Shown: positions 384 through 54,771 of the stretch, piece after piece
Position numbering within the stretch: position 1 is the first letter of the stretch
Layout of the letters: the number at the start of each line of letters is the position of its first letter
Origin: a virus
Virus record (IMG/VR): IMGVR_UViG_3300028559_001021
Location: 2,746-66,745 of that record
Reading direction: 5' to 3' (one strand)
Length of the DNA stretch: 64,000 nt
Translations under genes and position numbers: made by a program
Notes under the pieces: generated by a model
Databases searched by the model: none
What the model was told of the DNA's origin: nothing
The model's input: only the letters and a program-made list of their open reading frames with translations

Positions 384-3005
384 ATGATGATACTTGAAAA
401 CAAAATCAATTTATTAACAGAAAAAATCAATGCTGGTGAGTTTCTATTATTGGAAATGAAAAAGATTGGGATTGAGAAATTACCTTATTCGAAATCCTCA
501 CTTAAAAGATTTATTGATGGTAAAACTATGGATGTTCATTATAACGGACATTATAAAACATATGTAAAGAAACTAAACGACGTGTTATCTAAAAAAAATT
601 ACGGTGATTTAGAATTAGAAGATATTATTAAATCAATTAGTAAATTCCCGAAAACTGTCAGAAACAATGCGGGTGGGGCATTTAACCATGTTTTATTTTG
701 GAAAATGTTATCACCCCAAAAAAAAGAAATCCCATCAGAATTAAAATCAAGAATTATAAAAGATTTTGGATCAATAAATGAATTTAAAAATAAATTCAAC
801 GAAGAATCTAAAGATAGATTCGGATCTGGATGGTGTTGGTTGGTTCTAACAAAAAATGGTAGGTTAAAAATTATGTCAACACCAAATCAAGACAATCCAT
901 TAATGAATGTTATTGAGGGAGGTGGGTTTCCAATATTAGGTTTGGACTTATGGGAACATGCGTATTATCTAAAGTATCAAAACAAAAGAGATGAATATAT
1001 TAAAAACTTTTGGCATGTAGTTAATTGGGACTTTGTAAATGACTTGTATTTGAAAAAACAAAAATCTAAATTAATGGAATCAATTAGGATTATTAAAGAA
1101 GAAACTAGTAATGACGGATTACCTGAAAGTGAATACATCGTTAATGGAAGAATTAATCCCAAATTAACCCAAGAATTATTAAAAAAAGTATATCCAGAAT
1201 GTAGTCCTAAAATAATAAAAGATTATGACTTAAATAAACGTATACCAAATGCCTGTTATGGTAAAATAGAATCAGATACTTGCAAAACTGGTTATGGTGT
1301 TATTGGTGGTAAATATGCGATGAGTCAAAGGGGTGGTTTAGGTGAATGGTCAGTTTTGAATTGGTTTGACGGTCATAAAGATATTAGTAAAAAGATTTTA
1401 GAGTTTTATGGATTTCTAAATAGTGAAAAAAGTTCGTTTAAGTCTTGGATGAATAAAATGAAAAATGCTTTATTTGCTGAAGACAGAAAATTAGTCCAAC
1501 AATTATTACCATTAATTTCTAATCCTGAAACAAAAAAAGGATCATTAGACCTTGGTATTACTAGAGAAAATACTGCGGTAGATATTTTAAATTCCTTATA
1601 TAGTCAATCAAAAATAACAAGATTTTGTGATGGAGACCTTCGTGATAAATTTAAAGGTCAAGATATGATATGGAATGAAGACAATGTTGATAAGTTCGTT
1701 CAGGTTAAACCAACACATGATTTATTTAAAGGTGATGAGAATGGACAACCAATATATGTATTCAAAAGTAAAAACAAATATGAAGTTAAGAATATTCAAA
1801 TATTTGTTTTCATATATAATCGTAACAATTATATATTATTCAATAATAACGCAACCCCAACCCCAATTGAAAACGATTCTAATTTCAAATATTCATATAC
1901 ATTCAAAGAAGATGAGATAATGAAAAAAGATGGCAATGTTTTCTTAAAAAAATTAACTGAATCAACACGTAAAAACAGACTATTACTTGAGGGTAGTAAT
2001 TTCCCATTCTCCAAAAAAAGAATGAGGGATTTAATGTTTAATCAATACCCAAGTTGTGATGATGATAAGTCAGGTAATGGTTGTATTGGTAAAATTAATG
2101 AACCAAATTGCGAAACAAACATTGGGATTATTGGAGGTTATTACACAGAAGAAGAATATGGTGGAAGTGGTAATTGGTCATTAATTAATCGTTGGGATGC
2201 CAATACAAATATTCATAGTGCAATTATTAACATATATAAAAGAGAAAAAAAGAAAACAAAACGTAATTTAAATCTTGAGGATTGGATTTTAGAAAACGTA
2301 TATGACTTGTTCTCAAATGATGGAATTTACACAGAAGAACTAGTTGATATTGCTAAAGATTATTTTGATAAAGGTATTAAAAATGAATCTTTTGCCAAAA
2401 ATATTATTGAGAAAATATATGATTTAGATAAGAAAAAAGAAAATATTGACTATAAGTTATATAACTATTGTGGTGGAGCAATCAATGATACACTTTATGG
2501 TCAAGATATTGTTTTAGAACTAGAAAACAATGAACCAATTTACTTCCAAGTAAAACCATTCAAGCCAGACGATATTGGTTATTTTGAAGACGATGATAGA
2601 GGGTTTTATTATGGGGTTAAATCATATAACCAACATAATAAATATAAAATGGATTATGTTGATATTATAATATATGTTAATACATCAACAGATGAATATG
2701 TTATGTTCAGAAATGATTATAATAAAATAATAACAACAAGTAGTACCAATTACGGTGGTCTTAAATTTATAATCAATTATTATGAAGAACCATTAAAAAC
2801 AAATATATTATTTGAATTAAAGAAAGGAACAACATTAAGTTCAGAAAAAAAATTATTACGAAGAGACAAAGAAAAATTAGTTAAGTATTACCAAGATAGA
2901 ATACAATTCTTTCAAGATAAACTAAAAGATTTGGGAATTTCAGAAGAATTAAGTGAAGGTATTAAACAATGTAAAATTCAATTGTTGAAATTATTAACAC
3001 AATAA
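384..3005 (+). CDS. Fe/Mn superoxide dismutase fused to two tandem PD-(D/E)xK-like domains
   Basis: LPYS, HYNGHY, GGAFNH, FGSGWCWL, NQD and DLWEHAYY motifs; the C-terminal ~640 aa has two homologous repeats with GQD...QVKP. ATG 384 preferred over TTG 357, which overlaps the upstream stop. Confidence 0.85.
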   Translation: MMILENKINLLTEKINAGEFLLLEMKKIGIEKLPYSKSSLKRFIDGKTMDVHYNGHYKTYVKKLNDVLSKKNYGDLELEDIIKSISKFPKTVRNNAGGAFNHVLFWKMLSPQKKEIPSELKSRIIKDFGSINEFKNKFNEESKDRFGSGWCWLVLTKNGRLKIMSTPNQDNPLMNVIEGGGFPILGLDLWEHAYYLKYQNKRDEYIKNFWHVVNWDFVNDLYLKKQKSKLMESIRIIKEETSNDGLPESEYIVNGRINPKLTQELLKKVYPECSPKIIKDYDLNKRIPNACYGKIESDTCKTGYGVIGGKYAMSQRGGLGEWSVLNWFDGHKDISKKILEFYGFLNSEKSSFKSWMNKMKNALFAEDRKLVQQLLPLISNPETKKGSLDLGITRENTAVDILNSLYSQSKITRFCDGDLRDKFKGQDMIWNEDNVDKFVQVKPTHDLFKGDENGQPIYVFKSKNKYEVKNIQIFVFIYNRNNYILFNNNATPTPIENDSNFKYSYTFKEDEIMKKDGNVFLKKLTESTRKNRLLLEGSNFPFSKKRMRDLMFNQYPSCDDDKSGNGCIGKINEPNCETNIGIIGGYYTEEEYGGSGNWSLINRWDANTNIHSAIINIYKREKKKTKRNLNLEDWILENVYDLFSNDGIYTEELVDIAKDYFDKGIKNESFAKNIIEKIYDLDKKKENIDYKLYNYCGGAINDTLYGQDIVLELENNEPIYFQVKPFKPDDIGYFEDDDRGFYYGVKSYNQHNKYKMDYVDIIIYVNTSTDEYVMFRNDYNKIITTSSTNYGGLKFIINYYEEPLKTNILFELKKGTTLSSEKKLLRRDKEKLVKYYQDRIQFFQDKLKDLGISEELSEGIKQCKIQLLKLLTQ

Positions 3006-4530: not shown

Positions 4531-7331
4531 TAACCATTATTAAATTGTTCCCATCCTTCTTCAGCTAAATCGTAAATATAGTTGGGATTAATTCCTCTTT
4601 TGTTCCAGTATTCAATTTCCTTTTGTTCTAAATCCAATACATCCTCCTTTAGTCTGTCTTGATCTTTTTCCTCAAATGGAACTCCATTTATTAGTTCACA
4701 TTGTTGTTGTGTATAGAATTGTCTTTTCACAGGATTATCAATAATAAGAGTATCTCTCACATCTTGTTTGAAGACAACTAATAAAGGTTCAATACGATTA
4801 TTAAATGTTGTGATTGTTCTCGCTACATTGTATTCTCCTGTCATGTTGGGATTGTTTTCTAAATCGTTTGGGTCTAACATATAACAATTAAGTTGTGTAT
4901 AAGAATCAACAGAATCTAGTGGTATTTGTCCATAACCTTCCATAAAATTATCTAAATCTTGTTGAGTCCAACCTTTTTTTGGTTTATTAATTTTTTGTAC
5001 ATCCCCATGACTTGCTTTTGTTCCGTTATTAACATAATAAATTACATCACCCAAATTAATTTTTAGATTATGTTTGATTGCTAATTCTAAATGAGCCATT
5101 CTCGACATTGCCCCACCTGATTTGGTTGTTTGTTTTGACCTCTCAATATAATCCTTGATACTCAGTTTAACCTTAGCTCTTTGAGCCACTTTCATCAATG
5201 GTATTTCTTTGTTATAGATTTTAGTTAAGTATTCATAATACCACTCAACAAACTTTTGACCCTCACCTTCCAATAACAATCTAATTGCTTTATCCAAATA
5301 TTCCTCAATGTATAGTGGAAGTTTTTTTGATTTAATTGAGTTACCTGTAAGTTTTACCTTTCCATTGTGTTCCATCGTTGCGTAATTCTTACGAGCAAGA
5401 TTAATACATGATTTCCAAGTTCCATCACAATCTAGAGCCATTTCACCTCTCATAAAAATATCGTTAAACTCCGCAACATCAGCATCATATCCTTTATACT
5501 CCTTACCCTTTTTAACCTTCCAATTAAGACCTTTCCCAATATAAACTCTATCATCCACTCCACCTTTAGGTAGTGAGAAATTCACACCATCCGTATCCAT
5601 TACAAGTGCGGTATAACCTTTTCCCATAAAAAACTTAATCATCTGACGAAGATATTGTCTTCCAGTACAAGTTATCTGTTCACCCATATACATATCACCC
5701 CATGCAAACACATGAGGGGCTGATAAAGCACCAAACATTGAGTTGATGAATATCTTGATTGGTAATTGTTTTCTATCATATGATAATGATTTCTTCTTGT
5801 CTTTATCATACCATTCAGCCGCCAAGTTCTTGTACATAATACGAGCACTTCTAAAATATGATAACATACCTTTCATCGCACCTGTAATATCACAATCAGG
5901 GAATACATCGTGAACCAATTGAATTGATGGATATAGAGATGAGTAGTCAAGTTTTAAAACATCCTTGGAATAACCCACTCTTAATAGTCTTGATAAACCA
6001 CCAACAAAATCAGTTTTCTTTTCTTTTTGGGGAATTGCAAGTTTATGTTTATAAGACCAAGCCATCATCAACATTTTCCATAATGTTGCAGTTCCAATGG
6101 TGGAAACTCTTTCATAAGTTGTTGGAATCATTGAGGCCAACATAAATGTACCTTGATTGAATTCATCATCCACCTTCAAGGTTTCCTCCAAGTCATCATC
6201 CAAATATCTCTCAACAATATTGTCCCCAGTTGTTTTAATATAAACACCAGGATGTTTTTTATCTAGGTTATTGAATTGTGGATTATCAGCTTTCTTATAT
6301 TTTCCATTTTGGACATTCAACCAATACTCTTCTTTATTAGCGTACATTGACCCAATTTTATTATGGTCAATATAAACACGATCAGGAGCTTCAACATTAA
6401 TATACTGAGTAATGTATTTAAGACCTGCAGATTTAATACTCGAATTGATTGCTTGAGCTCTTCTAACTGAGTGTAGGATATCAATAACATTATATCCCCA
6501 TATTCCAATCTGTTTAAATTCCTCTACTTCATTTGCGAGTTTCAACATACCCTTAGTTTGTTTAAATTTATATTCTGGATGTAAGGTCTTACATATACGT
6601 TTAATGTCAAGATGTAAAGTTTTACACCTTTCCATAATCCAATACCAGTCAAAGTTGGATGAATTATATCCACCAATGATTGATGGTTTAACTTCGTCAA
6701 TAATTCTGAAAAACTCAACAAGCCCTGCTCGTTCTTGGTCTTCAGTTGCACATTCAATTACTTTCTCTAATCCTTTGTTTGTTTTAATTCCAATCATAAA
6801 TATTCTACCATCTTTAGGTTCTAAAGAGGTAGTCTCTAAGTCGAATACCAATCTTGTAATGTCATTATAATCATCGTACCCTTTGAATAACCTCTTTTCC
6901 TTTTGGATTAGATATTGTTCAACTGGGGAAGGTATTAAGAAGTATTCTTTGGTTTTTTCGCCATAAGGGTCAATTCCTCCTTCTTTAAAGAATTGCATTA
7001 AACTTCTGTAACCCTTTAAAGATTTGACCATATACTTAAGACCTTTCTCAAGTCTTTCATTACCACCAGTCTCCAATTTCTCAATTAGGATTCCGTGTTT
7101 GGTCATTGCTTCTTTTTGATTTGCTTTGGACGATTTGTAGAAATTAAGTCCGTGTAGGTCACCAACCCAAGCAAATGGGGTGAATGTATCCTTTCTAATT
7201 TCTTTTCCTTTACCGGGGATTTCTTTAATCTTAAAGATGTTTTCTGAAGCCCAATCATATTCTATTGCGACTATGTGTTCTTCGGGGTCGTTTCCGTGGA
7301 GGAAACTTTCGATTTCTTCTGGTGTTATCAT
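4530..7331 (-). CDS. Family B DNA polymerase
   Basis: ExoI DLETT, ExoII YNSSNFD, motif A LDYSSLYPS, motif B KIFINSMFG, motif C MDTDG. Confidence 0.97.
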   Translation of the reverse strand: MITPEEIESFLHGNDPEEHIVAIEYDWASENIFKIKEIPGKGKEIRKDTFTPFAWVGDLHGLNFYKSSKANQKEAMTKHGILIEKLETGGNERLEKGLKYMVKSLKGYRSLMQFFKEGGIDPYGEKTKEYFLIPSPVEQYLIQKEKRLFKGYDDYNDITRLVFDLETTSLEPKDGRIFMIGIKTNKGLEKVIECATEDQERAGLVEFFRIIDEVKPSIIGGYNSSNFDWYWIMERCKTLHLDIKRICKTLHPEYKFKQTKGMLKLANEVEEFKQIGIWGYNVIDILHSVRRAQAINSSIKSAGLKYITQYINVEAPDRVYIDHNKIGSMYANKEEYWLNVQNGKYKKADNPQFNNLDKKHPGVYIKTTGDNIVERYLDDDLEETLKVDDEFNQGTFMLASMIPTTYERVSTIGTATLWKMLMMAWSYKHKLAIPQKEKKTDFVGGLSRLLRVGYSKDVLKLDYSSLYPSIQLVHDVFPDCDITGAMKGMLSYFRSARIMYKNLAAEWYDKDKKKSLSYDRKQLPIKIFINSMFGALSAPHVFAWGDMYMGEQITCTGRQYLRQMIKFFMGKGYTALVMDTDGVNFSLPKGGVDDRVYIGKGLNWKVKKGKEYKGYDADVAEFNDIFMRGEMALDCDGTWKSCINLARKNYATMEHNGKVKLTGNSIKSKKLPLYIEEYLDKAIRLLLEGEGQKFVEWYYEYLTKIYNKEIPLMKVAQRAKVKLSIKDYIERSKQTTKSGGAMSRMAHLELAIKHNLKINLGDVIYYVNNGTKASHGDVQKINKPKKGWTQQDLDNFMEGYGQIPLDSVDSYTQLNCYMLDPNDLENNPNMTGEYNVARTITTFNNRIEPLLVVFKQDVRDTLIIDNPVKRQFYTQQQCELINGVPFEEKDQDRLKEDVLDLEQKEIEYWNKRGINPNYIYDLAEEGWEQFNNG

Positions 7332-7377: not shown

Positions 7378-7425
7378 TTTACCTTATCCTTATAAATATA
7401 GTATGACGATGGGGTTAAGTCAATA

Positions 7426-7459
7426 AAAAGTTGGTGATAAATTAATACCACCAACTCTT
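7426..7459 (-). terminator. Probable terminator
   Basis: AGTTGGTG...CACCAACT inverted repeat with an adjacent A run (U run on minus strand). Confidence 0.6.
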
Positions 7460-7476
7460 AATATTGAATAAATTAT

Positions 7477-9162
7477 TTAAGCGGTTATTGAAACATATGT
7501 AGGTGTTGTTGCCGACAAATATTCCAAGTATAAATTAGAATCATCCGATTTTATAATTTTACAATTATAATCAGCATATACATGTGTTGCAGTTAAAAAA
7601 TCAGTATAAGACACTGGGTATAATATTTGATTGTATCTAAAATCGTTACCTATTTTGTTTGAAACGAAACTATCCCCAATTATGTTGTCAAAACAAGACC
7701 CTATAATAGTATTATTATCAAAGTTGTTATCTATAATATTACTGTCAAAACTATAACTTCCAATATTTAAAGAATCACCAATTGTATTATTGTTAAAATC
7801 GTCTAAAATTTGATTGTCAGAAAATAAATTATAAATTTGATTGTTATTAAATTCATTTCCTATTTTATTTTTATAAACTTCGTCCCAAGTATTATTATCC
7901 ATATAATCATTCAGAATAACATTATCGTTGAATGATTTGTAAATTACATTATCATTAAAATAATCACCGATTTGATTTTTTTCAAAATAAAATCCCCAAT
8001 CTCCATCTAACCAATTATTATTAAAGTCATTTCTAATTTGGTTGTCATAGAAACCACTGCAAAGAATTACATTATCTCTAAACCTGTTACCAATATGATT
8101 GTCTTCAAATTCAGTGGTAATGATATTATTTTCAAAGAAATTTCCAATTACATTATCATCAAAGTCATCATCGGTGATGTTATTTCTAAAAGCATAACCG
8201 ATTTGATTAGCGGTACAGTCATCATTAAAAGTATTATTATAAGAACTATCACCAATAGTATTATTTTCATAACGGCCATCTTTGAGAACATTATTTGCTA
8301 ATAAGAAATCTCCGATACCTTCATTTAAATAATATTTTGAATAGTCTCCTATATAAGTGTTAATGCAACCATCATCATCTATCGCTTCAAATGTATTGTA
8401 AAGATTAAAATCACTTTGACCATCAATATTATTTGGATAATAACTATCATAACTATGGGAATTTGCATTAAAAAATTCATAGCCACCATTACCTGTTGCA
8501 GTAACAGTTTCTCCTTTTACAATCATTGAAGTATCACCTGAAATGCTAACAATTTCGTAAAATGTTTCATAGCTATTTCTGATAGCTATAATTTGTCCTG
8601 GACTAAGTGAAGTAAAGGTAGTTCCTGTTGAACCTGTTACTATTCCATCAGCCAATATTTCCACAGTTCCAGTATACGGATTTAATTTATTATAACTTCT
8701 TAAACGGTATCTTTTGAAAGTAATATTTTTATGGTCATAATCAGTTCTATTACCAAATTTGTCAATTCTTTCAGTAATTCTACCAAAAGCAGGATTACCT
8801 GATTCAGTTGTAGAGTATGTTACATCATACTTAATCTTATCATTCGGATAACTTGGTTGGTAAGCGTCAACCGCTAAAGTATTACTTGATGTTGCTAAAA
8901 CAATGATTGGTTCAGTTACACCTGTTACATATGAAGAACTAGATACCGCAATTGGATTTTTGTATTTGTCATAATCTGGTCTATCGTAACAAGTTTGATT
9001 ATCGGTAATTGAATAATAAGAACCGCAAGTTAAATCGCTTATACTAATTAAATTATTTAATTCGTTAAATGTTATTGGAATACAAGATAATGGGAGTCCA
9101 TTTTTCTCATATTTTAAAGCATCAACAATACCCGCAATTAATCTATCTACTTTTAATGGCAT
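7477..9162 (-). CDS. Beta-helix repeat protein, putative receptor-binding/fibre
   Basis: Many ~11-aa NxIG..F.. repeats; located in the fibre region. Confidence 0.65.
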   Translation of the reverse strand: MPLKVDRLIAGIVDALKYEKNGLPLSCIPITFNELNNLISISDLTCGSYYSITDNQTCYDRPDYDKYKNPIAVSSSSYVTGVTEPIIVLATSSNTLAVDAYQPSYPNDKIKYDVTYSTTESGNPAFGRITERIDKFGNRTDYDHKNITFKRYRLRSYNKLNPYTGTVEILADGIVTGSTGTTFTSLSPGQIIAIRNSYETFYEIVSISGDTSMIVKGETVTATGNGGYEFFNANSHSYDSYYPNNIDGQSDFNLYNTFEAIDDDGCINTYIGDYSKYYLNEGIGDFLLANNVLKDGRYENNTIGDSSYNNTFNDDCTANQIGYAFRNNITDDDFDDNVIGNFFENNIITTEFEDNHIGNRFRDNVILCSGFYDNQIRNDFNNNWLDGDWGFYFEKNQIGDYFNDNVIYKSFNDNVILNDYMDNNTWDEVYKNKIGNEFNNNQIYNLFSDNQILDDFNNNTIGDSLNIGSYSFDSNIIDNNFDNNTIIGSCFDNIIGDSFVSNKIGNDFRYNQILYPVSYTDFLTATHVYADYNCKIIKSDDSNLYLEYLSATTPTYVSITA

Positions 9163-10184: not shown

Positions 10185-10769
10185 ATGAGAAACCTTATTA
10201 AAAAAATATTGTTTGAAGAATTTCATAATCCAAAAATTTTTTTGGAAGAAATATCATTACGTGAACTTAATAGTTATTTAATTCTATCTGAGGGTAAAAC
10301 TACAGTATCTATTGATCCTAGTAAAAAAGATGCGGTATTTGATTTGATTGAACGATATTATAATGTAACAAATTATACAACAGGTGATAGAGCTCACCGA
10401 GACAAACAAACATCAATTACTTTTGAAATTAACCCTACTGACCATTGGTTAGAAAGATTAGATAGAACCAAGGAAGATGATTATAAAAATCACCCAACTA
10501 TAGTTGATCCAACAACAAACGAGGGGGTTGATTTAATTTTTATATTAAAAGATGATATAATTAAAAAAATATTAAATTTTGATTGGGGGAAACGAACTCT
10601 ATGTTTAAAATTAATCACCATAAATAATGGTAAAATATATACCAATTTAATTAAAATAGAAAAGGATACCTATATAAAAGACCATTATATCATAAATATG
10701 ATTACACATATGAAAGGAGAACCGTTAAAAAATCAAGAATTTAGTAAATGTACCGTTATAAAAAAATAA
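10185..10769 (+). CDS. Hypothetical protein with LIKKILFEE leader; possible nuclease fold
   Basis: Leader shared with other ORFs; TDHWLERLDR motif. Confidence 0.55.
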   Translation: MRNLIKKILFEEFHNPKIFLEEISLRELNSYLILSEGKTTVSIDPSKKDAVFDLIERYYNVTNYTTGDRAHRDKQTSITFEINPTDHWLERLDRTKEDDYKNHPTIVDPTTNEGVDLIFILKDDIIKKILNFDWGKRTLCLKLITINNGKIYTNLIKIEKDTYIKDHYIINMITHMKGEPLKNQEFSKCTVIKK

Positions 10770-10794
10770 AAGGGATACATTTAGTATCCCTTTT
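10768..10794. terminator. Bidirectional intrinsic terminator
   Basis: AAAAGGGATAC-attta-GTATCCCTTTT. Confidence 0.9.
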
Positions 10795-10955
10795 AACCCT
10801 ACTTCTCGATTAAGACACGCCAGTCAGCCTTAGTACTGGAGAGGCAATAGTCACCATCCTTTCAGATGTATTCAGCATAGCTTTCATTTTCGACTACCAA
10901 GGTTTTTTCGACCCCATAACTTTCAAAGGTAAGTCACCAACCATAAAACACTATT
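10768..10955 (-). ncRNA. Putative structured non-coding RNA
   Basis: GC-elevated stretch with no long ORF; GATATTTATA motif at 10963-10972 upstream on the minus strand, terminator downstream; several G-U-containing stems and a GAAA tetraloop. Confidence 0.6.
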
Positions 10956-11071
10956 ATAAACCTATAAATATCCTATTTAGTTCCCAAACTTATTATTTTT
11001 TTCACTAAATATTTTTTCATCAAATCTTATATAAATATAACCACCAACATCATAATAAAGTTCCAAGGTTA

Positions 11072-12745
11072 TCAATTTTCTTTTCTTAATTTTGAATCGT
11101 AATGTTCATATCGGTTATGTTCGGTGGGGGTGATTAATAATAAACCTGGTTTAATATTACCCTTTATTGTTTCTTGGTAACAATAACTCATTAAAGTCTG
11201 TTCAAATGCTTTTTGCCACCTTGTCTCCAAGTAACATTTGTAATTACCCTCCTTACTCAATACAATAGGCCAATTACATAAATAAATCTCACCACTAACA
11301 TAAGGAATACCTTTATGTGATTTTATATATTTAAACTCAGTTCTTGGGGCGTCTATATCGTAACCAAATTTTGGTAACTTTGTTTTGTTCGGCCAATGTT
11401 TTTGTCTGAAATCTTGAGGAACATTATACCATGACCATTGTGTCCCATTGTCACCAAAGAATTCTGTATAGTTTAATTTTAAAAAATCAAAGTTTTCTTT
11501 TTGAATGATTTCCAAACTTTTTCTATATAAACCTTTAACATATCTATTAAAACCATTTTTACAAGTTTCATTTTTTGGATAAAAAAACATATCATCCTCA
11601 AACCAAAAATAATAGTTTAAATCAGTATCGTTAAAATGTTCAGCAACAAATACCCTTCCACCCATTATACCCAAGTTGTCTTTCTTAATATGTTCAAATC
11701 CGTATTGGTCACATAACTCTTTATACCTTGGAGTTGTTGTTAAATCAGTTGAGTTATCCAATAAGAACTTTTTTGGTTTGTTAATAAAATCCTTATCGTA
11801 TTCCAGCATTGATTTAATCAAGGTTTCAAACTGACTTGGGGAATTAAATGATATAACATATAACCCAACCTTATCAATTGATTGATTTGTTATTTTAGGT
11901 AATTCTTTTGTTTCTTTTTTTGGTACTAACTTATCATTCTTTAAATCCTCAAAAAATTTACCCATTAATCCATTTCCCTCAATATCAAAATAAGTTATCA
12001 TATTTGGATACAGATAAGTCATAAGGGTAAAAATACTTTCCTCAGTTCCCATATATCCTTTGGATAATGTATCAACAAGAAGATGATAATATAATGTATT
12101 AATTTCACTTATTGTTTCCTTTTTACCGCCAAAGAAACCACCTCTTGCGACCTTATCTATTTTTGAATTGGTCAAACGATTCATTTCATTGTAATTGAAT
12201 CCGTGAATTTCAGTTGATGCTTCGTAGGGAAAACAAACAAAGTTAAAATCACCCAAATATTTTGGTAACTTATTTAATACTTTATCGTGGGTGAAATAAC
12301 CTGGATGAATTGTATTACATAGACCAGCATCAATCCAAAACATATATTCTGAATCAAATGAGTCATATATCTTTGCATCGTGCAATAAAAACACTTTGGA
12401 CATAACTAGGGGGTTATATAACTCAAGTTTAGCTTGGGTTGAATCTGTTAACCAACCAACTTGATTATACCAATTTGGATTTGTTCTAATGTTTTGTATT
12501 TTATCAAAGTATTCATTATTCTTAAACCAATCTAAATTTCTTAAAATAAATCTTGTGTTGGTTTTATTTCTTTTTTTGAATACAAATTCTTGTAATTCTT
12601 GGTCACCAAAAATTATCATATTTTCCTCAACCTCTAATAGTCTGGAAAACTTATCCAAATAGTGTTGATATGAACGAGACCAACCTTCATTGAGGTTTCC
12701 TCTCCCAATATCCCAAAGTCCTGTTACTAATGTAATTTTACTCAT
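11072..12745 (-). CDS. HtrL/YibB-family domain fused to a GT-A glycosyltransferase-like domain
   Basis: ITLVTGLWDIGR, WIDAG, GGFFGG and TEE motifs; C-terminal FEDD motif. Confidence 0.7.
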   Translation of the reverse strand: MSKITLVTGLWDIGRGNLNEGWSRSYQHYLDKFSRLLEVEENMIIFGDQELQEFVFKKRNKTNTRFILRNLDWFKNNEYFDKIQNIRTNPNWYNQVGWLTDSTQAKLELYNPLVMSKVFLLHDAKIYDSFDSEYMFWIDAGLCNTIHPGYFTHDKVLNKLPKYLGDFNFVCFPYEASTEIHGFNYNEMNRLTNSKIDKVARGGFFGGKKETISEINTLYYHLLVDTLSKGYMGTEESIFTLMTYLYPNMITYFDIEGNGLMGKFFEDLKNDKLVPKKETKELPKITNQSIDKVGLYVISFNSPSQFETLIKSMLEYDKDFINKPKKFLLDNSTDLTTTPRYKELCDQYGFEHIKKDNLGIMGGRVFVAEHFNDTDLNYYFWFEDDMFFYPKNETCKNGFNRYVKGLYRKSLEIIQKENFDFLKLNYTEFFGDNGTQWSWYNVPQDFRQKHWPNKTKLPKFGYDIDAPRTEFKYIKSHKGIPYVSGEIYLCNWPIVLSKEGNYKCYLETRWQKAFEQTLMSYCYQETIKGNIKPGLLLITPTEHNRYEHYDSKLRKEN

Positions 12746-53509: not shown

Positions 53510-53875
53510 TTACTTTTTAATTAAAGTTAAGGTTTTTTTATTTTTATTTCCATTTTTGTCAACGGTTTCAACCTCAAATTCAATCCTAGTCTTACCCTTA
53601 TTTTTTTCCGATTCAAGTTCTTTAAATTTTCTATTAGTTACAATACCTTCACCTGGATCAGTAAGCGAAGTATCATATTTCATATTTAAATCCCCATTAC
53701 TTAATTGTTTTAATGATAACACTTCAATTTTTACCCAACCAGCCCATAATTCCCAAACTTCACCATCAATAATTATGTTACCATTTTTAGCTGTAGGTGA
53801 TTCAAGGTCTTCTTTGATTATTCGTTTAACTAAACGTACTAAATCTGATTCTGTTAATCTTACTATCTTTTTCAT
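53510..53875 (-). CDS. Putative head-internal protein with RLTESDL leader
   Basis: MKKIVRLTESDLVRLVKRIIKE. Confidence 0.65.
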   Translation of the reverse strand: MKKIVRLTESDLVRLVKRIIKEDLESPTAKNGNIIIDGEVWELWAGWVKIEVLSLKQLSNGDLNMKYDTSLTDPGEGIVTNRKFKELESEKNKGKTRIEFEVETVDKNGNKNKKTLTLIKK

Positions 53876-54771
53876 TTTGGTTTGTATGACACCATTGTCG
53901 GTTTATTTCCTGTACCAATCTTGGGGTCTTTCTTCTCTTCCCTACGTTTTTGAGTACATGCTGACTTCTTCTCAGAATCAGACATCTTACCCGCAACACC
54001 AGCAGCCCTACATTTAGGATACCCCTTTGTATCAGATTCACTTCTACCACAAGGGGGGTGTTTACCATCTACCTTTCTACATATATTAACCCAAGGACCC
54101 TTTGGTTGTTTACTACCCTTGGGTTTCTTTTTTGTCCCAAACCACACACCCAAATCTTCTTTAATCGTATGAACATCTCCAGTCTCAATTTCATATGAAC
54201 CATCCTCATCTTTCTCCCACATACCAACAACTTTCTTTATATTATTCTTCATTGTTGATTTTACCTTTTTACGATTAACTTCAGTATCAACAAATTCTGT
54301 AAATGGTGCTAAATTATTATGTTTCCATTTTCTTATACCCAATTCTTGAGGCCCATTATATAGTCCAGCCGATGTACTAGAATCCACTTCATTTATATTA
54401 TACCAAACATTAGTATCCTCAGTTAACATTGGAGCTTCCTCGTAATGCCACTCATTCAAATTTTTTGGGGTCTTGGTGACGTTTTTTGTCATTAACTTAG
54501 TGTTGGTATTAGTTGAAGATTTTATTGCCTTAGATTCAATTTTTTTGACATCCTTTTTTGGAGTACTCATTTTACCATCATAACTATCTGTGGTAAGTTC
54601 TTGACTATAATACAATGAAACAGATTTATTAAATGGGTCTAATTGTGTTTTTTCAAATACTCTTTTTCCTAGTTTAAGAGGGGGATTAAACGAACCCCTA
54701 CTACCACTAGCGTCAGTAGTTGCTTCTTTTAGTATTTCTTGTTTGATTTTTTTAATTAAATTCTGTATCAT
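53872..54771 (-). CDS. Multi-segment protein with LxE/IxE linkers and a C-terminal Cys domain
   Basis: ILKE, LNE, LTE, INE, IKE boundaries; EDLGVWF..GPWVNIC..HPPCGR..YPKCR; start MIQN follows TATTTATA at 54790-54797. Confidence 0.65.
   Translation of the reverse strand: MIQNLIKKIKQEILKEATTDASGSRGSFNPPLKLGKRVFEKTQLDPFNKSVSLYYSQELTTDSYDGKMSTPKKDVKKIESKAIKSSTNTNTKLMTKNVTKTPKNLNEWHYEEAPMLTEDTNVWYNINEVDSSTSAGLYNGPQELGIRKWKHNNLAPFTEFVDTEVNRKKVKSTMKNNIKKVVGMWEKDEDGSYEIETGDVHTIKEDLGVWFGTKKKPKGSKQPKGPWVNICRKVDGKHPPCGRSESDTKGYPKCRAAGVAGKMSDSEKKSACTQKRREEKKDPKIGTGNKPTMVSYKPK

Follow-up and report, generated by a model that had tools for sequence, protein, structure and literature searches.

A pseudoknotted RNA of lake phages and its companion gene for a small unannotated protein

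Very few of the structured RNAs encoded by phages have a known partner. In type III toxin-antitoxin systems (ToxIN, CptIN and TenpIN), an antitoxin array of ~36-nt repeats lies upstream of the toxin gene and co-directional with it. Here, we describe a structured RNA encoded on the minus strand of a viral DNA from IMG/VR (record IMGVR_UViG_3300028559_001021, positions 2,746 to 66,745; these 64,000 nt are referred to as the window), together with the adjacent gene of a 194-aa protein, p194. The locus resembles type III systems in that a pseudoknotted RNA is genetically tied to one small protein, a terminator lies between the two genes, and the RNA sometimes occurs in tandem copies. It differs from them in that the genes are convergent, in each of 22 contigs with p194 as well as in the window, and in that the RNA is one ~160-nt unit with its own promoter-like signals, the tandem copies being whole genes. 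Moreover, p194 matches no ToxN or AbiQ model in Pfam, PHROG or PADLOC. Copies of the RNA that occur without the protein would parallel the 'pseudo-ToxI' mimicry of phages, with the roles of phage and host reversed.

Like the T4 endoribonuclease RegB, which has a RelE/YoeB fold, p194 is a small basic phage protein; unlike RegB, it has an N-terminal leader and a candidate partner RNA, and it gave no significant sequence or PDB fold match. Phage T4 also encodes two small stable RNAs, rnaC and rnaD, at the end of its tRNA cluster, a position that the present RNA takes in the contigs L127-L129. Unlike T4 rnaC, it does not end in a tRNA-like T-arm sequence. The sections of PMC3014915 cited here state that no small trans-acting RNA or riboswitch of T4 was functionally characterised at that time, and leave RNAC and RNAD unexplained. 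GOLLD and ROOL are ornate RNAs of phages and prophages, with functions unknown, often found near tRNA islands and in some cases recovered from lake metagenomes, according to the parts of 10.1101/2024.12.08.627333 used here. They are three to five times larger than the present RNA and form RNA-only cages; the passages of the literature cited here describe no partner-protein gene for them.

Fold and covariation of the RNA

Homologues were collected with the 557-aa protein encoded next to the RNA, which retrieved 80 related IMG/VR loci on contigs of up to 322 kb. By blastn of the intergenic region, a stretch of ~180 nt (10762-10944 in the window) was conserved in 12 of these loci. Further homologues came from pattern scans and from two covariance models, R1 and R2, whose E-values are rough; a second pattern scan of viral contigs added nothing to the known members but five chance loci, and R1 matched none of these five at E ≤ 1. 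Homologues were found in related large lake phages, and the full-length phage members are L001-5, L007-11, L013, L033, L081, L085, L116, L117, L122, L126, L130 and L133. The elements of the RNA in the window are listed below, with the share of alignment cells that are paired and the number of base pairs changed on both sides.

10762-10972, minus strand: stand-alone structured RNA gene with promoter-like signals and a terminator, from the comparison of homologues
10788-10946, minus strand: conserved RNA core of 159 nt, matched by R1 (153.3 bits, E = 1.3e-32) and R2 (143.6 bits)
10931-10936/10917-10922, minus strand: hairpin P1, UGACUU/AAGUUA, with a loop that starts with ACC (97.9% paired; 5 of 6 pairs)
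10911-10915/10899-10903, minus strand: hairpin P2, GGGGU/ACCUU (91.9% paired; all 6 pairs of the model)
10892-10898/10846-10852, minus strand: P3, GGUAGUC/GACUAUU, closing stem of a three-way junction that spans 10846-10898 (95.4% paired; 6 of 7 pairs)
10880-10882/10874-10876, minus strand: P3a, a small variable hairpin (10874-10882), read by eye only
10865-10868/10855-10858, minus strand: P3b, CAUC-GAAA-GAUG, with a GAAA loop, spanning 10855-10868 (100% paired)
10842-10845/10827-10830, minus strand: pseudoknot helix PK1, GCCU/AGGC (91% paired; 3 of 4 pairs)
10835-10839/10820-10824, minus strand: pseudoknot helix PK2, CCAGU/ACUGG (100% paired; all 5 pairs)
10796-10819, minus strand: 3' domain with a conserved GCG...CGA motif and the candidate stems GUCUUA/UAGGGU or a short CG/CG (72% paired in the modelled helix)

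Conservation of the RNA and of its helices is demonstrated by this comparison. Standard pairs make up 93.9% of 849 cells across 25 distinct sequences, versus 73.6% in shuffled alignments, and 30 of 35 pairs are changed on both sides; none of 500 shuffles reached any of the five measures. When the 3' partners were slid by 1-3 columns, pairing fell to 23-45% and the pairs changed on both sides to 6-15. An alignment of 20 sequences gave the same picture. We must note that the alignment was fitted to P1, P2, P3, P3b, PK2 and a 3-bp P6, and so favours those helices; PK1, absent from both covariance models, still covaries. PK1 and PK2 interleave to give an H-type pseudoknot (10820-10845), and they could in principle form instead as two mutually exclusive hairpins. 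The support for the structure comes from the homologues and not from thermodynamics, since the folding energy of the single sequence is unremarkable (z = -1.59; 13 of 200 shuffles fold as well).

The 3' domain is less well defined. A script found its best stems (P6) to be no longer than those of shuffled sequences (mean 5.0 versus 4.8), and inspection by eye showed some compensatory changes in each of two alternative hairpins. At the 5' end, a pairing of GGUUG with GUAAC was rejected, as changes on its 3' side are uncompensated. RNAalifold paired the 5' GUU (10938-10941) with RRY at 10824-10826, before or inside the 3' strand of PK2; by eye this pairing fits all 20 sequences, with one-sided changes of the wobble type only. 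The pairing of the invariant GUU with RRY could reflect a base triple, an alternative fold or chance.

A preliminary description of this DNA, made from the letters alone, had proposed an unrecognised stand-alone non-coding RNA on the minus strand of a phage, lying in a GC-enriched segment, and had suggested an Rfam search and a covariation test on homologues. That proposal holds. G+C is 0.38-0.43 across 10750-10949 versus 0.17-0.31 in the flanks, and the covariation is that given above. At gathering scores, Rfam release 15 has no match anywhere in the window; at E ≤ 10 over 10600-11200, it gives chance hits of the terminator type only, of at most 21 bits against cut-offs of 44-127. Searches with the homologues L099/L100 and L006 likewise returned hits below the cut-offs only, one of them 'L20_leader' on the third L099 copy (27.6 bits; cut-off, 58.7). 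ARAGORN found no tRNA or tmRNA in the window, and none overlapping the RNA in 13 loci scanned. By blastn, the RNA region had no match among 50,697 phage records. Among the hand-folded stems, GUGACUU/AAGUUAU (P1), GGUAGUC/GACUAUU (P3), CAUC-GAAA-GAUG (P3b) and CCAGU/ACUGG (PK2) all recur with compensatory changes in homologues. The proposed closing stem AACCUU/AGGGUU had to be abandoned: its ACCUU is the 3' strand of the covarying P2, and AGGGU lies in the 3' domain. The second pseudoknot helix, P2 and the link with the 194-aa gene had not been part of that description.

Linkage with the p194 gene

The best-supported statement is that the RNA forms a new structured family outside Rfam, whose phage members stand in a fixed pair with p194. 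By tblastn, p194 matches exactly the RNA-bearing phage loci. Of the 80 loci, 12 (L001-5, L007-11, L013 and L033) carry the full RNA together with p194, and the other 68 lack both; L006, one of these, has only the P1-P2 part of the RNA. Profiles of p194 fetched 22 viral contigs, in each of which the RNA is matched on the strand opposite p194, 19-100 nt beyond its stop codon. The linkage holds down to ~26% identity of p194, the most distant proteins being 26-27% identical. Two tandem RNA copies stand beside one p194 gene in L154 (2172-2534), L156 (1899-2261) and L157 (1899-2258), all on the minus strand; in these copies, from a distant branch of the cassette, P1 reads CGGUUU/AAAUCG and the P3b loop UUAG.

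The genes around the RNA in the window are:

10185-10769, plus strand: 194-aa gene (p194), convergent with the RNA and its conserved companion, by tblastn in RNA-bearing phage loci
11072-12745, minus strand: 557-aa gene with an HtrL_YibB domain, by open reading frame (ORF) and domain match

The RNA locus is thus flanked by the stop of the 557-aa gene and that of the p194 ORF. In other cassettes the neighbours vary. In cassettes of the window type, a 161-aa gene is found on the p194 side, and in L153-L156 on the side of the RNA; neither neighbour gene of the window occurs within the 1.5-kb flanks of L139, L150, L151, L157 and L161. Strict linkage of the two genes within an otherwise changing neighbourhood is demonstrated. 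The window itself is rich in A and T, and its gene products include a family B DNA polymerase and glycosyltransferases; it comes from a record of 66.7 kb with a CheckV completeness estimate of 23%.

The 45 homologues of p194 are all annotated as 'hypothetical protein' or unnamed, and contain no Pfam domain. Their N-terminus (MRNLIKKILFEE in the window) follows the pattern M(R/K)xLI(K/R)(K/Q)IL.E(E/Y) and is conserved while the body of the protein diverges; by analogy, this leader resembles a capsid-targeting signal. The only other ORF in the window with a p194-like leader encodes 299 aa (53872-54771, minus strand) and starts with MIQNLIKKIKQEILKE. The invariant residues are E36, H87, R91, R94, P109, G114, T174, K177 and G178, so that H-x3-R-x2-R, P, G and K-G are kept throughout, with H87, R91 and R94 on one helix of the AlphaFold2 model (pLDDT 84.9, pTM 0.75). 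Foldseek searches of BFVD returned unnamed phage proteins (E = 3e-5 to 1e-3); the fourth-ranked hit is a protein named 'Site-specific RNA endonuclease' (E = 1.3e-3, TM 0.37/0.49, 116 columns). In the ESM Atlas, p194 had matches below 0.9 only, to unnamed viral clusters (0.89), DUF3228 (0.80) and DUF4258 (0.78).

Putative transcription signals, and copies outside the cassette

The sequences that may start and end the RNA are the following:

10985-10988, minus strand: TTTG, possible -33 element that precedes the TAGGTTTA box by 20 nt, read from the sequence
10963-10972, minus strand: GATATTTATA, promoter-like motif that recurs in the window, by copy count against shuffles
10957-10964, minus strand: TAGGTTTA, -7-like box of the TAnnTTTG type that ends 14 nt before GGTTG, with a similar box in homologues
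10757-10795, minus strand: intrinsic terminator, a 12-bp stem (10767-10795) followed by a T-run, shared back to back with the p194 gene

The claim that the RNA has its own promoter and terminator stood in full for the terminator and in part for the promoter. The strong terminator is present as described, and a hairpin with a U-run, of unrelated stem sequence, lies downstream of the RNA in 17 of 20 homologues; it is weak in L127 and L129. The motif GATATTTATA is also where it had been placed, with nine copies in the window versus 0.88 expected (none of 100 shuffles reached nine). Its core ATATTTATA has 13 copies in the window, mostly a few to ~30 nt upstream of an ATG (sites include 360, 371, 3010, 7399, 15767, 19634, 26644, 51021, 54798, 56487 and 61762). 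One copy lies ~60 nt ahead of the DNA polymerase gene, and the motif is therefore not confined to structural genes. Upstream of the RNA, the motif occurs in only 10 of the 20 homologues and in none of four host copies. In 11 of 20 homologues, a TAnnTTT(G/A) box precedes the model start by 17-22 nt (at -35 in L007 and -11 in L085). Together with TTTG, it resembles the housekeeping -33/-7 promoter of Bacteroidota. The two signals overlap in the window, and judging by the sequence, either of them may drive the RNA. A look for RNA sequencing runs that contain the stretch found none, the one run labelled RNA-Seq being flagged 'probably DNA'; the late expression put forward in the preliminary description is conjectural. 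The conserved core starts at GGUUG in all contexts.

The RNA also occurs away from the p194 cassette. It lies on two contigs of metagenome-assembled genomes (MAGs) recorded as Saprospira, L099 (= G001:C58) and L100 (= G002:C177), among bacterial-looking neighbours with WD40, resolvase, HsdM, VIT-vWA and 5'-nucleotidase domains. L099 has three tandem whole RNA genes (1898-2747, minus strand), each with its own upstream region and terminator, adjoining genes with resolvase and HsdM (type I methylase subunit) domains. The copy in L100 (6400-6675, minus strand) is longer, with ~110 nt extra before the terminator. In the host genus, 4 of 12 genomes had a match, two of these being truncated forms, and in the host family one of 151 genomes matched (19 candidates scored per genome). 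On these counts the RNA is an accessory and not a housekeeping element, and a role as a housekeeping RNA of the host family is unsupported. Its independence from the flanking genes is demonstrated by its distance from the 557-aa gene in L001-L003 (~1.7 kb), its sites at tRNA arrays and its presence on the MAG contigs.

Several loci carry parts or variants of the RNA. In L006, which is syntenic with L001-L005, an RNA at 7410-7600 (plus strand) keeps the promoter, P1 and P2 and has a different 3' domain of ~110 nt; a 172-aa ORF follows on the same strand (7599-8117) and has no similarity to p194 (E = 0.4). By eye, the end of the 3' extension in L100 resembles the end of the L006 variant domain, which makes the family look modular. 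P1 and P2 alone open the mRNA leaders of unannotated proteins in L088 (5684-5761, minus strand; = L132) and L092 (376-477, minus strand), and the proteins beside these leaders gave no family match. In the host genus, L106 (1501-1600, plus strand) and L107 (388-507, plus strand) have P1 and P2, a P3-like stem and a U-run, followed by a 140-aa ORF on the same strand. The P1-P2 module may be a shared handle for protein binding or processing.

Possible roles of the RNA

Our leading explanation, held tentatively, is that the RNA is a dedicated partner of p194 and probably restrains it. An RNA gene of ~185-200 nt would be transcribed on the minus strand from its own signals to its own terminator. 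The RNA would bind p194 and hold it in check in the manner of an RNA antitoxin or antidote; restraint is more likely than a role of the RNA as a cofactor of p194. The conserved N-terminal leader suggests that p194 may be packaged. That p194 might act as a ribonuclease (RNase) is so far no more than a lead. Where the RNA occurs alone, in the host genus and at the end of tRNA arrays of other phages, the same RNA would be supplied without the protein; such copies fit either an antidote used without its protein or an independent function.

Several observations weigh against this partnership or against the RNase lead. The phage loci are related to one another, so that co-occurrences cannot be counted as independent. 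In the host genus and at tRNA arrays, the RNA is present with no p194 close by and could there have a function of its own, and convergent genes with a shared terminator could stay linked for reasons of transcription alone. In L150, L151 and L161 the RNA matches are weak (15-17 bits, E = 0.001-0.03, on a rough calibration); P3b, PK1 (GGGU/ACCC) and PK2 (UUGG/CCAA) are readable by eye in the first two. The p194 protein has no match in Pfam, PHROG, PADLOC or the PDB sequences, and no PDB chain was found by Foldseek at E ≤ 0.001. Alignments of p194 with T4 RegB by hhalign are not significant (E = 0.14 and 0.33 over 18-24 columns), even though both placed the strand and H-x3-R of p194 on the RegB stretch that holds H48. 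RegB has two catalytic histidines, H48 and H68, in the account given by the cited part of PMC3014915, whereas H87 is the only invariant histidine of p194 (in 11 and in 18 sequences).

A rather unlikely reading, which still deserves weight, takes the RNA as an autonomous, stable, trans-acting RNA of the tRNA or translation sphere, comparable to T4 RNA C/D, GOLLD and ROOL, with its place beside p194 being inherited gene order. It agrees with the RNA-only sites. In L127/L128, the RNA begins 5 nt after a six-tRNA array (Asp, Glu, Ile-TAT, Ile-GAT, Met and Gly; L127:743-1239, plus strand, = L128:888-1384, minus strand, on a phage-like contig), the last gene of which is tRNA-Gly; in L129, same-strand tRNA genes lie ~260 nt upstream of it. 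The four RNA-bearing host-genus genomes, which are incomplete MAGs, have no p194, and the named RNAs of T4, phages and prophages share the neighbourhood of tRNA genes (10.1101/2024.12.08.627333 and PMC3014915, in the parts cited). The presence of the RNA in 22 of 22 p194 contigs, despite their differing flanks, argues against inherited gene order. No GOLLD or ROOL match was obtained from Rfam, and homology with T4 rnaC/rnaD was rejected: with filters off, the top R1 score over the 10-kb T4 region 66000-76000 was 9.2 bits (E = 0.34), and nothing exceeded 7.6 bits at rnaC/rnaD themselves.

Quite unlikely, in our judgement, is a wider scheme built on the partnership with p194, in which the two genes are a new RNA-protein conflict module. 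In such a scheme, the leader-tagged p194 would be packaged into the head and injected, perhaps acting as an RNase on host RNA at entry, and the RNA antidote would protect phage transcripts. Capture of the RNA without p194, by the host genus and by other phages, would have led to as many as three tandem copies next to a gene for a type I restriction-modification methylase subunit, and would provide an RNA-only immunity against the injected protein.

An improbable alternative is that the RNA acts in cis as an antisense or terminator-sharing regulator of the p194 mRNA, similar to type I toxin-antitoxin systems, the 3' ends of the convergent transcripts pairing with each other. Every cassette is convergent, and the p194 frame extends across the terminator and overlaps the RNA gene at its 3' end in L004, L005, L013, L126 and L130 (in L004, the ORF stops at 7207, within the RNA model match at 7060-7217). 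In the window, however, the overlap is limited to the terminator (stop codon at 10767-10769, within the stem). Six covarying helices are more than antisense action would require, the RNA is least conserved where the two genes overlap, and copies without p194 exist.

We consider it very unlikely that the RNA is a riboswitch-like ligand sensor on its own terminator, tuning read-through into downstream sequence, including antisense transcription of p194. A junction and pseudoknot with conserved joining nucleotides directly before a terminator are typical anatomy for such a sensor, truncated forms precede the same-strand 140-aa ORF in L106/L107, and a same-strand 91-aa ORF follows the RNA in L128. 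In the window and all 22 p194 contigs, however, the next gene is convergent, which leaves no 5'-leader position. The downstream genes have no common function, Rfam gave no riboswitch match, and no covarying alternative anti-terminator pairing was found.

A self-processing or catalytic RNA, for example one that sets its own 5' end just upstream of GGUUG, is highly improbable. The core does start at the same place behind differing upstream sequences (promoters at varying distances, or a tRNA 5 nt away), and it combines a compact pseudoknotted fold with invariant unpaired nucleotides; a promoter or tRNA 3' processing could equally set that end, and no Rfam ribozyme matched at E ≤ 10. That the region is no RNA gene at all, being a small protein gene or the 3' untranslated region of the 557-aa gene upstream on the same strand, is hardly credible: it holds no long ORF, as first described, and its longest, of 25 and 16 codons, which the preliminary description had named as what might explain the conservation, have no counterpart conserved in position, frame or length among 20 homologues, whereas helix substitutions are compensatory and the element also occurs apart from the 557-aa gene.

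A catalogue published in 2023, with 8,495 candidate structured RNAs drawn from IMG/VR (PMC10690425, in the part cited), may list the RNA without describing it. As a class, it has unusually clean comparative support, pseudoknot included. Unlike GOLLD, ROOL and T4 RNA C/D, it has an obvious candidate partner, the unannotated p194 family, and with two small genes the function is directly testable. Should the RNA indeed restrain an injected effector, RNA antidotes would gain a new type, and the copies in the host would amount to a new kind of defence based on RNA.

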